Assembly (NCBI GenBank): GCA_964016885.1
Contig: OZ024747.1
Span: 20,770,001 to 20,834,000 of the forward strand
DNA: 64,000 nt
Reading direction: 5' to 3'
DNA from: Eledone cirrhosa
Taxonomy: Eukaryota
This document shows, piece after piece, positions 36,494-57,782 of the stretch; position 1 is the stretch's first letter; each line of letters begins with the position of its first letter. Under the pieces are notes generated by a model, which saw only the letters and a program-made list of their open reading frames with translations, ran no database searches and was not told the DNA's origin. Both the position numbers and the translations under genes were made by a program.

Positions 36494-36532
36494 TGAACCT
36501 GAAGATTGCGAAAGCATGAAAGTACTTGTTCA
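36494..36532 (+). ncRNA. Minimal type-I hammerhead
   Basis: ugaac CUGAAGA u ugc-gaaa-gca u GAAA guac UU guuca. 5-bp stem I, GNRA-capped stem II, palindromic AGUACU stem III. Confidence 0.75.
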
Positions 36533-36992
36533 ATTAACACTTAGAATTGATTATTCTATCATACTATTTCATTATAATACCATTATAAATGTTAAAGGAT
36601 TGTAAATAAAACGAGTAAATCAGACAAAGTTGGAATTCCTCTTATTAATATAATCTTCTATACACAATCATACACACCCGTGTATATTTATCTATCTATA
36701 TATATATATATATATATATGTATATATAACGGCGATGAATTAGTTTTGCGAGGTTTTTTATATGAAATCGTGTGTCGAAACAAATATTGTTATACTTGGG
36801 GAGGGTCATATTTGTGTAATATTGCCAGAATTAATAACAGAACACACTCACTGTTTGGTTGGTTTTCGCTTTTCGCTTCTATGTCTTTTATATCGGTAAT
36901 CTAATTTATTCGGTCCTCAATGTTGCCATTGACTGACCAACGGTCAAAAATAATACAGATACAATATAGACACAAACATATATATACAGTTT

Positions 36993-37034
36993 ATCAAAGT
37001 TCTTTCGTTGCACATCTGCAACATCGTCAGTGGT
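36993..37034 (-). ncRNA. Minimal type-I hammerhead in the 3' region of the PLE
   Basis: acca CUGACGA u guugca-gaug-ugcaac GAAA gaac UU ugau. Perfect 6-bp stem II; stem I has one mismatch. Confidence 0.65.
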
Positions 37035-37310
37035 GCTATAGATTCCTCCCGTTGCATTGTATTTCTACGCCATCTTTATTTAGTCTGTTTATATATTTAT
37101 TTATTTATTTGTTTGTTTGTTTATTTTATTTTGTCTTCTTTGCGCATGCGTTTGCGTGTGTGTATAGTGTTTTGTTTGATGTGTGTTCGTGATTGGGTGA
37201 CTGTGTATTGGCTAATGTGTTCTATGTTTACTAGTGTGTGTTTATATGTGTTTGTTGTTATTGTGGTTGTGTATGTATTTATTTATTTATTTATTTATTT
37301 ATCTATTTAT

Positions 37311-37657
37311 TTATACTTCTCTTAGGTCAGTGTTGTTTGTTTGTGTGTTGTTGTTATTCCATTCATTCTTTCTGTTTAGTCTTGGCCTTCTAAGTTCTAT
37401 TTCACTGGCCTCTCTGATTTGCCTATCTGCTGGGTCATTTCTATGTTTAGATATTATTCTAATTTCTATGTTGTCTATGTTACCGTCGTGTTGTTGTGTG
37501 GCATGTTCGTATAGTACTGACCCGTTTTTCGTCCTTTTAGTTCCCCCCAGTGTTGGTCTATCCTTTCACCTATGCTACGAGCTGTTTCGCCTATGTATGT
37601 TGTTGTCATGTTTCTGCAAGTACCCTCTGTACATCTTATGTTATAGACCGGTATACT
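37311..37657 (-). pseudogene. GIY-YIG endonuclease C-terminus of a Penelope-like element (inverted arm)
   Basis: Minus strand reads PVYNIRC...TYIGETARSIGERIDQH, then after a frameshift near 37525 GSVLYEHATQQHDGNIDNIEIRIISKHRNDPADRQIREASEIELRRPRLNRKNEW, with stop at 37311-37313. Confidence 0.85.
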
Positions 37658-53330: not shown

Positions 53331-55433
53331 ATGTGTGAATTCATATATATCTATGTATATGAATACGTGGTTGTGAGAGTGTGTATATGTCGTTTCATGT
53401 ACAAATTAGAGAGATACAGCAGAATGCTTGATGTGTAAATTCTATCCGCCGAGCCGAAAAGCACTGAACTTACAGATTGTTATACATGTATATACATTTA
53501 TATATATATATGTGTGTGTGTGTGTGTGTGTGTGTGGGTGTGTGTGTGTGTGTGTGTGTGTGTTTGTGTGTGTGTGTGTGTGTGTGTGTGTGTGTGTGTG
53601 TGAGAGTGTGTGTGTGTGTATGTGTGTGTATGTGTGGGGGGGTCTCTCTGTGTGTGTGTCTCTGTGTGTGTATGTGTGTGTGTGTGTGTGTGTATGTGTG
53701 TGTGTATGTGTGTGTATGTGTGTGTGTGTGTGTGTGTCTGTGTCTGTGTGTATGTGTGTGTGTGTGTATGTGTGTGTATGTGTGTGCGTGTGTGTGCGTG
53801 TGTGTGTATGTGTGTGTGTGTGTGTGTGTGTGTACTTATCCCGGGTTCAATCGGGGATAACCACAGTAAGTAAGGTACTCAATATGTATTCATTTTCTTA
53901 TACTATTTTAAAGGGTCCGTCGAGCTGCCTATTATTGAGTCGGGTAAGATCGCTACAGATCGAACCTTGAGCTGATCAGTGGCGAAACGCGCGTCACCTA
54001 CCAATAAATGTAATGAAGGAGTAACCAACCAATCGCCCTTGTTATCCTTTCAATATATTACACTCTATATAACTCTACACATCAACACAGAAGTGAACCT
54101 AAACATCGAGTGCTCACCCGGGTGAACCTGCAGTAACTCCAAGTTACACTCCCTATATATATATAGAGATATATAGATACATATACATATATGTGTGTGT
54201 GTGTGTGTGTGTGTGTGTGTGTGTGTGTGTCTTTGTGTGTGTTCGTGGGTTCGTTTGTAGGGACAAACTTTGACTTATATACGTGTAAAACATCTTCTGG
54301 GAAGGAATTATTGACTGTATATACTCAGTACAAAACAATAAATATCAATTTCGGTGAATAATTCTGAAAACAGTCTTCATCTTACATACAATTTCTTCAC
54401 ATCTCTCAGCCTACGCACGCACACACACATACACACACACACACACACACACACACACACACACACACACACTTACACACATATATATATATATATATAT
54501 ATATAAATATGTATATATACATATATATATGTATATATATATACATATCTATATATAAACATACATATATACATATATATATATATATAAACATATATAT
54601 ATATATAAATATATATATATACATATATATATATATATATATACATATATATATATATATATTACAAAATATTGTTCACTCGGTACGATTCTCTTTTCAA
54701 GCAATATGAATTAATATTTTAGGTTTTAAAACTTCTGAAAATGTACGAAAGGAACACATATATTATCAGAAAATGAAACTAAATGTAAAGTTAATTTCGT
54801 AATAAATGGCAATAGAAATTCCTTCGGAGCGATATGTGATAAAAACTGTTCTGCGGCTATGAATGAAATCTTTCTATTAGAAGCACCTAATGGTGAGATT
54901 ACAAATAGATGAGAGAGTTATGTATATGTATATATATATATATATATATATATAAAGAAAAAAAGATGAAATCGAAAATGCAACTGGAGTCTTATTTTTA
55001 AAAAAAGTATATATATTTATTTGGTTCCTTATATATATATATATATATATATATATATATATATATATATATATATATGTATATGTGTGTGTGTGTGTGT
55101 GTGTGCGTGTGAGTCTGTGTGTGTGAGTGTATAATAATGATAACGTAAGGACGAATGGTAACTCCTTCATTACGTTTATTGGTTGGTGACTCGTGTTTCG
55201 CTACTGATCAGCTCAAGGTTCAATCTGTGTGGATCTAGCCCGACTCTGGAATGAAAAGCTCGTCGGATATATATATATATATATATATATATATATATAT
55301 ATGTGTGTGTGTGTGTGTGTGTGTGTGTGTATGTGTGTGTGTGTGTGTGTGTGTGTGTGTGTGTGAGGTGTGTGTACATGTGTGTGTGAGTATGAATGTG
55401 CGTGTCTGTGTGTATCTGTGCGTCTGTGTGTCT

Positions 55434-55805
55434 GTCATACCAGTTTTCAAAAAGGAGTACAGGATCTTTGGGGGGAACTACTATCCAATCTCACTCAGCT
55501 CTGATATTGTCAAGGTATTACGGGGGGGGGGGGTGATGAGATAACGAATAACTCCTTTCCTTGAAAGGAACAATCTGCTGAACTCCAGCCACCATGGGTT
55601 CCGCGATGGATGGTCTGGTCTGTCTGACGCCCTTTTTGCATTACTTTCATGACAACCTAAAAGCTTTGCGAGATGGCACCAATACGGATGTTATTTACCT
55701 TGATTTCAGCAAGGCCTTTGATAGGGTCGCCTACATCATCTTATTGAAGAAATGATCCAACACTCGAGTCTGTAGAAAGCCTCCGCTGTGGATTAAATGT
55801 TTCTC
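55434..55805 (+). pseudogene. CR1/L2-type LINE RT fragment
   Basis: VIPVFKK...NYYPISLSS, NLLNSSHHGFRDG, DVIYLDFSKAFDRV; contains frameshifts and a stop. Confidence 0.82.
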
Positions 55806-56455
55806 AGCATGCTGTAGTCGAAGTAATACAAAAATGTTCGGTAAAAGTCTGTTATTGGCTCGAAAACTGACATTCTATGTTATAATAAAAAGAAATGCCA
55901 AAGGTAAGAAACAAATACCGTTGACTTATGCTGTGACTGCTGCTACTACCGCATTAAAGGACAAATGAAAGCAAACTTAACGATTTAAAACTATTAAATT
56001 CAATTATAAAGGATATAATTTAGTTTTTTGGCCAAGGTTGATTTTATGGTTAGGGTTAGTGTTGCAAGTAATGAAAAAACAATTTTTGTTCATAATCATA
56101 CAATTTTAAAAAATACTAGCATGTAATAAAAATTCAACGATTTTTTTAATTTTATGTCAAATACTTTTTCGGTGCTATTTTACGTTCGCACTTGCAAAAA
56201 ATATAAGTTTAATGTTTAAAGGAAAGGTTAATTTTAAAGGATGTTAATATTCTTCAGAGGACAGTTTAATGAAAACGGGAGAATACTTTGTTTTTAAATA
56301 TTATTTTATATCTACTACTTTTTCTTCTATACTCATTTATTCCCGAGAGAATCGTAACAGCAGAGTTACGCCTTTCAGAGTGTTCTATCAGAAGTACGCG
56401 TTTCCAACGGCAAGATCCCCAAGCTATACCTACCAAGCTTATAGATGTTATTTAT

Positions 56456-57220
56456 ATGGTTGATTTCTTCGGACTAGGGAGAGGAAAGACTGTATTTATT
56501 TTATCTAATAATTCTTCAAACTTACAATTTTATATAGTTCTGATTAACAATTATTTGCTAAATTAATTCTTTCATTGAGCCACACCGTGAAAGGTATCTG
56601 TGACTATGTCTAAATATATACATATATCCCTATGAATTTAATATATACTCCCGTCAGGTAGAGTAACACTTTAGGAAGTATCTGGCTCGCTTTCTAGCAA
56701 CCAGCCTACTCGCCGCCTGGCAACCAATCACAGTCTTCTGCCTTGACCACTGGCCACGTGATGATTCTTAGCCACTTTTTAATTCAATTCTGGCGGGGAT
56801 CACGGTAGAAATGTTAGTCCAAACTCGGGGTGTCTCTTGATGAGCTCCAAGCCTCGTGGATAAATCCAGCATCGGGTATATCCGCAAAAAAGGAGCGAAA
56901 CTGCCGGCAGTCGGGACAAGAGGAATTTTAGTAAAGTTTATATGCATTTTTTCTTCCAACTTATATTTTAAACCTAACTCCGTTTAGTTGATTATTTGTC
57001 TAGTCAATTTCTACGGTCTAAAAGGAATGACTAGATAAATTTTATCTGGCTGTCCCTTGCGGAAAATAGTCTGTATCATTTGTCTATTATTTCTTCTTAG
57101 TTTCATTTTAAACTTATAGCCTCGTTTAAATGATTATTTATGGTTGATTTCTACGGACTAGGGAGAGGAAAGACTGTATATATTTTATCTAATAATTCTT
57201 CAAACTTACAATTTTATATA
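56456..57220 (+). mobile_element. Non-coding hammerhead-bearing element with terminal direct repeats (retrozyme-like or non-autonomous PLE)
   Basis: About 81-bp direct repeat at 56456-56536 and 57140-57220 (offset 684), hammerhead at 56831-56918, runs into a long (TA)n. Confidence 0.7.
56831..56918 (+). ncRNA. Type-I hammerhead (C3U in this copy)
   Basis: ugucuc UUGAUGA gcucc..guggaua..uauccgc..ggagc GAAA cugccggcag UC gggaca. 6-bp stem I, canonical G10.1-C11.1, palindromic stem III, GUC site. Confidence 0.78.
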
Positions 57221-57782
57221 TATATATATATTTATATATATATATAAATATATATACATATATATATATACATATATATATATACATATATATATATATA
57301 TATATATATATATATATATATATATATATATATATATATATATATATATATATATATATATATATATATATATATATATATATATATATATATATATAAT
57401 AACTGTTTCAACTTCCTGATGATTTCTCCCGAATGAAACAGTTCTAGTCCTGAAGAAGCCTTTTCTATATTAAATATATGTATATATATATATATATATA
57501 TACGTTACCTAAGTAAACTATACGTATGCCTTGTTCAGGCTTATGATACCTTAAACAATACTTGATTTCAGTATATTTCCGGGAAACCAATTTCAAACAA
57601 TTCTAGTAAAATTCTATTTGTTCTGGAATATTCATTCATTCAGAATTGCTGCGCAATGCGAGATCCTTTCGTTCGAAAGTTACATGATCTGTAACCTCCT
57701 GCTTCAAAAGACGTCTGCATTTGCAAAATTACACTTTACTAAGCGCAAATATATATATAAAGACATGCGTTAGTAGGCGAAA

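Follow-up and report, generated by a model that had tools for sequence, protein, structure and literature searches.

Does a mismatch at positions 10.1-11.1, the first pair of helix II, mark a tolerated variant of the hammerhead ribozyme, or is it left by decay or chance? The question is raised by a locus at which an earlier note had read six hammerheads with such a mismatch. Here we examine these folds, their related copies and their paired counterparts across the window, that is, the whole 64-kb stretch of DNA that was analyzed. The reading we prefer, with a probability of roughly 0.7, is that the type I hammerheads are scattered 3'-end fragments of several families of Penelope-like elements (PLEs) in what is probably an octopus genome, and that about half of the candidate families carry an inherited, tolerated and slower-cleaving mismatch, mostly U·U, of a kind already described. 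The observation is real and mostly already known.

The bases given in the earlier note at 10.1/11.1 were verified at all six sites (U·U at four, C·A at one and A·G at one), as was the pairing of the stem past the mismatch, which extends over 3 bp in A, B and C, 4 bp in D, 6 bp in E and 7 bp in F. The folds are as follows:

36494..36532, plus strand: hammerhead A, type I, full core, U·U at 36506/36517; E=0.005.
45053..45107, plus strand: hammerhead B, U·U at 45067/45079, U4A, predicted cut after 45100; E=0.01.
57412..57458, plus strand: hammerhead C, U·U at 57423/57434, A at 16.1 (decayed); E=0.175 alone.
47425..47469, minus strand: fold D, doubtful, U·U at 47459/47442, G12A, U16.1A, 3-bp stem I.
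49367..49448, minus strand: hammerhead E, full core, C·A at 49436/49386, then a G-C pair; z=-3.0.
50567..50615, plus strand: hammerhead F, A·G at 50579/50598, U4C, 7-bp helix II, 8-nt palindromic helix III; z=-3.2.

The core (C3-U4-G5-A6-N7-G8-A9, G12-A13-A14, A15.1-U16.1 and H17) is complete in A and E, has one change in B, C and F and two in D. Three helices with helix I open are found in A, B, E and F, and in C once its register is corrected; D is marginal. Hammerhead A has a 3-bp helix II with a GAAA loop, a 6-nt palindromic helix III and a predicted cut after 36527, and E has an extended helix II with a nested hairpin and a 10-nt palindromic helix III. The helix III segments are self-complementary at 6/6 positions in A, 10/10 in E, 8/8 in F, 14/17 in B and 10/16 in C, and folding a monomer as a hammerhead costs 1.7-5.7 kcal/mol relative to the MFE. 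In these respects the motifs look like the type I, palindromic-helix-III hammerheads of PLEs.

One alternative is that the folds arise by chance in AT-rich repetitive DNA, random hairpins beside a core being usually unpaired at this position. In its favor, 62% of random base pairs in the window are non-pairing, five of the eight matches in shuffled sequence are mismatched, a GAT repeat reached E=0.02, and the Rfam hammerhead models gave no match at the gathering score across the 64-kb window; at E<=10 in 33000-64000, no hammerhead family appears among the 150 matches listed of 229. Yet a strict descriptor recovers four folds, namely A, B, E and F, whereas 200 shuffles yielded 0.04 folds on average and never more than 1. 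On a register-neutral score of our own, devised, like our other scores, after the candidates had been seen and the source of the E values listed for A, B and C, E and F have no match in 200 shuffles and A and B are as listed; these four far exceed 200-300 shuffles, and B and C are each present in several copies. For A, B, C, E and F the chance reading is therefore disfavored, and we consider it highly improbable overall. It does suit fold D, which has E=3.4 and whose core plus hairpin is approximated in 12% of 300 shuffles; D is doubtful, being either chance or a heavily decayed copy. Of the hammerheads proposed in the earlier note, then, A, B, E and F stand clearly beyond chance, C is weak alone and has two sister copies, and D is unsupported. 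The note's expectation that standard searches may miss such motifs is borne out by the Rfam result and by one major hammerhead survey that, in its available text, explicitly excluded 10.1-11.1 mispairs. Several other candidates were rejected: the match at 21345 (minus strand) is a GAT-repeat artifact and was left out of the counts, and those at 20197 (minus), 7029 (minus), 44794 (minus), 38695 (plus)/38726 (minus) and 33889 (minus) have only a pattern resembling the 3' half, with the core not in place.

The mismatch is not general. The same interval holds six candidate families in which the position is paired (five G-C, one A-U):

53913..53999, plus strand: G1, weak, G10.1-C11.1, U4C, A6U, palindromic helix III; E=0.83.
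55185..55266, minus strand: G2, sister of G1, G10.1-C11.1, U4C, 5' strand of stem I lost to (TA)n.
56831..56918, plus strand: H, G10.1-C11.1, C3U, 12-nt palindromic helix III, GUC site; 0/200 shuffles.
36993..37034, minus strand: I, one extra U, then G10.1-C11.1 (the textbook PLE form); E=0.01.
47215..47273, plus strand: half motif J, 7-bp helix II closed by G-C, GAAA, helix III and GUC, without the 5' core.
46415..46491, plus strand: K, full core, G10.1-C11.1, 10-nt palindromic helix III, GUC site; 0/200 shuffles.
45382..45432, minus strand: L, A10.1-U11.1, C3G (decayed or chance); E=0.01.

Half motif J sits within an inverted repeat at 47174-47285. The purine-pyrimidine pair is thus absent in A, B, C, E and F and present in G, H, I, J, K and L, so that about 5 of 11 families are mismatched, a count in which the paired families surfaced only under relaxed rules and G and J are weak. 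The strict descriptor missed every paired fold because each has a G·U pair, a stem mismatch or core changes. The recurrence reported earlier is upheld in part, from a list that was selective.

Whether the mismatch is inherited can be judged from related copies, which we sought by masked self-BLAST, a plain repeat finder being swamped by microsatellites. Families B and C gave the following:

12716..12768, plus strand: copy 2 of family B, in which helix II is damaged and position 4 is C; U·U at 12728/12740.
15079..15133, minus strand: copy 3 of family B, in which position 4 is A; U·U at 15119/15107.
45001..45121, no strand: 121-nt fold-back inverted repeat with hammerhead B in one arm.
15177..15212, plus strand: copy 2 of family C, a truncated copy flanked by (TA)n tracts, with A6G; U·U at 15186/15197.
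39425..39469, minus strand: copy 3 of family C, which keeps U16.1 and has C3A; U·U at 39460/39449.

U·U is kept in all three copies of family B, with other sites differing at 2-5 of 52 nt, and in all three of family C, with differences at 3-5 of 34 nt; within the window, neither family shows a canonical pair. Judged from these alignments, U·U in families B and C is inherited and not a product of decay. Decay alone would give 5 of 11 mismatched families with P=0.0001-0.016 at 5-15% breakage per pair (0.003 at 10% and 0.016 at 15%), and three of the five mismatches are U·U (P=0.034 by composition). The earlier view that the mismatch is not decay accordingly holds for U·U, a family trait and likely a tolerated variant, whereas C·A and A·G are each seen in one copy. 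Its description of the hammerheads as unrelated is apt insofar as no sequence similarity was detected between families, but a common PLE ancestor is compatible with the data. The copies also settled the register of family C: an initial register, in which stem I had a bulge and the site was GUC, gave way to one with a 4-bp helix III and A17 when the copies were aligned, and the idea that the copy at 15177-15212 ends at the cleavage site fell as well. Of 14 motif sites, 5 begin no more than 60 nt from a (TA)4+ tract, against a background of 8.8%.

The single-copy mismatches leave room for a narrower account, compatible with the main one and a real if lesser possibility, in which U·U alone is a genuine variant and C·A in E and A·G in F are mutations from a paired state. 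Neither E nor F has a sister copy in the window, and C·A could stem from one CpG transition, since only a single G-to-A substitution on the 3' strand, within a CpG, separates it from C-G; moreover, the next pair in E is G-C, so the fold is readable as a canonical G10.1-C11.1 flanked by two insertions. Set against this, the remaining core-flanking stem pairs are intact in both (16 bp in E and 16 bp in F), A·G would require a transversion, and A·A occurs in a published PLE family as given in the available supplement (PMC4209133), so purine-containing mismatches exist.

The attribution to PLEs draws on one degraded element:

37541..38712, plus strand: PLE-type reverse transcriptase (RT) remnant, frameshifted and truncated, inverted relative to the endonuclease part.
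37368..37648, minus strand: C-terminal GIY-YIG endonuclease remnant of the same element (Pfam GIY-YIG E=0.0046, below the curated cut-off).

The best match of the RT remnant is an Octopus vulgaris RT-domain protein (73% identity). Paired motif I lies about 340 nt 3' of the GIY-YIG remnant and is the only motif in the position expected of PLE hammerheads, in the pLTR 3' of an RT plus GIY-YIG ORF; this placement also speaks against chance. A Pfam scan and tblastn found no ORF remnant beside the mismatched motifs A, B, C, E and F. With 115 homologues, tblastn returned only the 37368-38712 element plus one weak match, and among the 55 of 164 stop-to-stop ORFs listed for 31400-64000 Pfam gave, besides the weak GIY-YIG, no more than a piece of a mariner-type transposase and three matches below threshold. 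Pfam on 12 homologues yielded a single weak RVT_1 match, so that the assignment to PLEs relies on motifs and the order of domains instead of a curated match. PLE insertions are truncated or inverted and frequently lie at microsatellites; such traits are present in the inverted RT and endonuclease halves, the fold-back around B, the opposite-strand sister copies and the sites near (TA)4+ tracts. The mismatched families could be non-autonomous derivatives or members of other PLE clades.

If the motifs acted as PLE hammerheads do, two of them in an element transcript would each pair through the palindromic helix III of the other, and the resulting active dimer would cut after H17 and trim the element RNA from a longer transcript. 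The mismatched bases may form a non-canonical pair that stacks on the sheared G12·A9 pair, so that helix II would run on without a break while cleavage would be somewhat slower; this arrangement corresponds to what the PLE literature reads as "extra N10 plus extra N11". PLE hammerhead rates are normally low, so the 10.1-11.1 pair would be under weak selection. By now, most single copies in the genome are likely decaying and inactive, and B and F depart from U4, which lowers activity, so they may have spread as passengers.

Taken further, this last point becomes a rival in which the mismatch is inherited and the ribozymes are dead: non-autonomous PLE-end fragments would be amplified without need for self-cleavage, and the mismatch would therefore mark relaxed selection and not a working variant. 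Most copies do have core damage (U4A, U4C, A6G, C3A, U16.1A), U4 is missing from all three copies of family B (A, C and A at position 4), the B locus is locked inside a long hairpin (predicted at -87 kcal/mol) that would sequester the ribozyme, and some PLE clades spread without canonical hammerheads, according to the available text of PMC8557442. However, core and stems are perfect in A and E, the two core boxes and the helix geometry persist in all five families despite their differing stems, and U·U forms are reported as active in the sources as available. We regard dead passengers as unlikely and continue to favor tolerated, slowly cleaving PLE hammerheads.

A bolder extension, which we hold to be rather doubtful, is that cephalopods bear a very large uncatalogued PLE hammerhead load (about 15 candidates in the 64 kb of the window), with a major subclass accepting almost any stackable 10.1-11.1 mismatch, including the new C·A and A·G, with three families lacking U4 and all cleaving as dimers. 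If so, they would offer a natural library of relaxed-core hammerheads missed by strict searches. Should the mismatch prove equally common across cephalopod genomes, hammerhead and PLE counts from Rfam or strict descriptors would be too low, and the families would be natural test cases for the contribution of 10.1-11.1 (and U4) to dimeric PLE ribozymes. The U·U variant by itself adds nothing new for ribozyme structure.

Nor is it novel, as the available parts of the literature already contain a natural U10.1-U11.1, a cleaving U·U family and a PLE descriptor with extra bases. The first, found in rare variants, was called surprising yet compatible with Ruffner 1990, cited there for U·U as the best mispair (Perreault et al., 2011, PMC3088659); the mismatch is at the same numbered position as in the window, and the same paper records U4C from a viroid. 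No values for the 10.1-11.1 pair were found in the available text of Roberts 2023 (PMC9901934). The best-documented active U·U case, HHR_Amex2 of the axolotl, has U·U at the base of helix II in about 60,000 copies; its monomer self-cleaves to 22% within 1 h, and its dimer to a greater extent (Cervera and de la Pena, 2020, PMC7229834, as available). On both accounts a purine-pyrimidine pair at 10.1-11.1 is no strict requirement. Like the window motifs it is a type I, multi-copy animal hammerhead; unlike them it is a retrozyme, with 350-bp tandem repeats, circular RNA and loop 1-loop 2 contacts. Non-LTR retrozymes bear their hammerheads in head-to-tail tandem repeats a few hundred bp long; in the 64-kb window no tandem array overlaps a motif, and the copies are dispersed.

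Closer relatives are the PLE-linked variants with a short stem III, whose cleaving form is the dimer (Lunse et al., RNA Biol 14:1499, via the available text of PMC6765202) and the PLE hammerheads of Cervera and de la Pena (2014, PMC4209133). The descriptor in the available supplement of the latter permits an extra N10 and N11, and at least 3 of 56 rows of Fig. S3 show an additional base on each side, namely U·U in Hydra, U·U in D. willistoni (440 copies) and A·A in A. vaga, a reading taken from column-less text and supported by Fig. S5; C·A and A·G are absent from the rows compared, which list no cephalopod. As far as that source is available, its hammerheads share with those of the window the type I form, short helix I, palindromic helix III, dispersed single copies and opposite-strand pairs, and differ in their common form, which has one 5' extra base and a conserved G10.1-C11.1, whereas about 5 of the 11 families in the window are doubly mismatched.

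The mismatch at 10.1-11.1, the first position of helix II, is real for five candidate hammerhead families, and the bases read there by the earlier note proved correct on checking the sequence at all six of its sites:

36494, forward strand: family A, U·U
45053, forward strand: family B, U·U
49367, reverse strand: family E, C·A
50567, forward strand: family F, A·G
57412, forward strand: family C, U·U
47466, reverse strand: doubtful fold D, U·U

A strict type I descriptor, allowing at most one change across the two core boxes and Watson-Crick stems only, returned four folds in the window (A, B, E and F); shuffled windows gave 0.04 folds each, with a maximum of 1 (n = 200). 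The fold of C is weak on its own (E = 0.175), owing to an A at 16.1 in this copy. The U·U hammerhead proposed at 47459/47442 (fold D) did not hold up and is left out of the count: G12 (the general base) and U16.1 are missing, E is 3.4, and a core plus hairpin of this type occurs in 12% of shuffles (n = 300).

No paired fold was found in the window with the strict descriptor, an absence that favours the earlier note. When the rules were relaxed to admit G·U pairs, a single mismatch inside a stem or two changes in the core, paired folds turned up inside the interval that the note had described (36494-57458); the recurrence stands for five families, but its scope had been overstated.

56837, forward strand: motif H, G-C; 0 matches in 200 shuffles
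46419, forward strand: motif K, G-C; 0 matches in 200 shuffles
37030, reverse strand: motif I, G-C preceded by one extra U; E = 0.01
45427, reverse strand: motif L, A-U; E = 0.01
53917, forward strand, and 55266, reverse strand: two-copy family G, G-C; weak, E = 0.83
47245, forward strand: motif J, half motif, paired

Four mismatched folds stand against four paired among the eight with E ≤ 0.01, and with C, G and J included 5 of 11 families are mismatched, the E values and counts alike depending on our own post hoc fold scores; a GAT-repeat match (E = 0.02) was discarded. Decay alone would yield 4/8 with P = 0.0004-0.021, and 5/11 with P = 0.0001, 0.003 and 0.016 at 5, 10 and 15% breakage, which argues against decay, as the note had held, and makes it an unlikely source of the five families even with post hoc scores. 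The C·A of E lies one CpG-type transition from C-G (the next pair is G-C), and the A·G of F would require a transversion from a paired state. U·U makes up three of the five mismatches (P = 0.034 by base composition).

Masked self-BLAST of the window located sister copies of B and C, and none of A, E or F:

45055 (forward), 12716 (forward), 15133 (reverse): family B, U·U in 3/3 copies
57416 (forward), 15179 (forward), 39467 (reverse): family C, U·U in 3/3 copies

Copies differ at 2-5 of 52 sites in B and 3-5 of 34 in C. Neither family consensus, a check proposed in the note, has a canonical pair, so U·U was already in the template of both. Core position 4 has repeatedly lost its U, in three families:

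45061, 12722, 15125: family B, A, C, A
50573: family F, C
53918, 55265: family G, C, C

For U4 variants in PLE (Penelope-like element) motifs, C·A or A·G occurring naturally at 10.1-11.1, and octopus hammerheads, no report was found in a searched literature that omits most subscription papers, a weak absence; the only match for U4C was a mention for a viroid by Perreault et al. (2011; PMC3088659), who report U10.1-U11.1 as a natural variant and whose search filter excluded 10.1-11.1 mispairs. A non-U position 4 may be the less-known variant of this window. The U·U variant is already known, with activity data from another animal: the axolotl has ~60,000 type I motifs in which U·U opens helix II, whose monomers cleave 22% in 1 h and whose dimers do far better (Cervera and de la Pena 2020; PMC7229834). 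In PLE motifs the same authors earlier termed the G10.1-C11.1 pair highly conserved (2014; PMC4209133); their descriptor permits an additional base on each side (N10 and N11), a feature that their alignment, as text without column layout, has in at least 3 of 56 representatives (U·U in Hydra, U·U in a 440-copy D. willistoni family, A·A in A. vaga). The accessible portions of bioRxiv 10.64898/2026.07.22.740005, PMC6155905, PMC11300833, PMC6765202 and PMC9901934 leave the verdict unaltered.

The animal DNA of the window is AT-rich; repeat masking (simple or tandem repeats) covers 31% of it, and it has no tRNA genes. It holds ~15 hammerhead-like candidates in 64 kb (D excluded), at 12716-57458, 13 of which fall within the 36-58 kb stretch; were this single window typical, the genome-wide load would be very high. 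Masked self-BLAST also revealed numerous inverted repeats that are nearly perfect, several of them surrounding (TA)n tracts, and more than 12 copies of a ~190-nt SINE-like repeat, which may resemble cephalopod tRNA-derived SINEs. These and other features of the window are:

6856-7267, 10540-11377, 36432-36482, 38679-38742, 41442-42396, 42503-42817, 45747-45888, 49828-50019: near-perfect inverted repeats
10959-11077, 12438-12571, 15605-15800, 31962-32152, 39869-40061, 59823-60021, 62098-62681: SINE-like copies, among others
36351-36423, 47103-47175: shared 73-nt repeat (86%), each copy adjoining a different palindrome and (TA)n tract
22710-31279: 8.6-kb minisatellite, 39-nt unit, ~220 copies, extreme strand skew, open frames of ~3,000 codons on both strands
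62866-63102: DDE transposase fragment (Pfam Transposase_1, E = 8e-12)
63157-63677: 103-nt tandem repeat following it, 5 copies, 99% identity
45001-45121 (B), 47174-47285 (J), 46057-46774 (K): fold-back inverted repeats with a central hammerhead or half-hammerhead
17073-17174: copy of the locus B flank lacking the entire hairpin, ribozyme included

The B, J and K loci look as if cDNA had folded back on itself close to the ribozyme, and would give long hairpin RNA. Since B lies within a 121-nt fold-back with a predicted hairpin of -87 kcal/mol, the copy at 45001-45121 would not fold as a ribozyme.

All window motifs are type I, and no loop-loop module was recognised in them by eye. They are not in tandem repeats, which rules out tandem retrozymes. 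Paired motif I lies ~340 nt downstream of a PLE remnant in two parts:

37541-38712, forward strand: RT remnant, from homologue matches
37648-37368, reverse strand (inverted relative to the RT part): C-terminal GIY-YIG remnant, fitting the C-termini of the same homologues

For the ORF of the RT part (37541-38527, forward), the best of 116 matches is an RT-domain protein of Octopus vulgaris (E = 2e-126, 73% identity), which makes an octopus the likely host. PLE insertions are described as typically inverted and truncated (PMC8557442). A (TA)n tract lies within 60 nt of the start in 5/14 sites against a background of 8.8%. No ORF could be linked to any mismatched family (115 queries against the window), and for these we therefore infer a PLE origin from anatomy.

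Pairing of palindromic helix III may join two copies, in one transcript or in two, and a cut after H17 in the paired copies would process the RNA of the element. The bases of the mismatch would form a non-canonical pair stacked on the sheared G12·A9 pair and lower the cleavage rate; PLE hammerheads cleave slowly in general. The majority of genomic copies bear additional core damage, and most are likely inactive now. Helix III is self-complementary at 6/6 positions in A, 10/10 in E, 8/8 in F, 14/17 in B and 10/16 in C, and the monomer hammerhead fold is predicted to lie 1.7-5.7 kcal/mol above the minimum-energy fold; a palindromic helix III with an unfavoured monomer fold is also the pattern of PLE hammerheads that need dimers.
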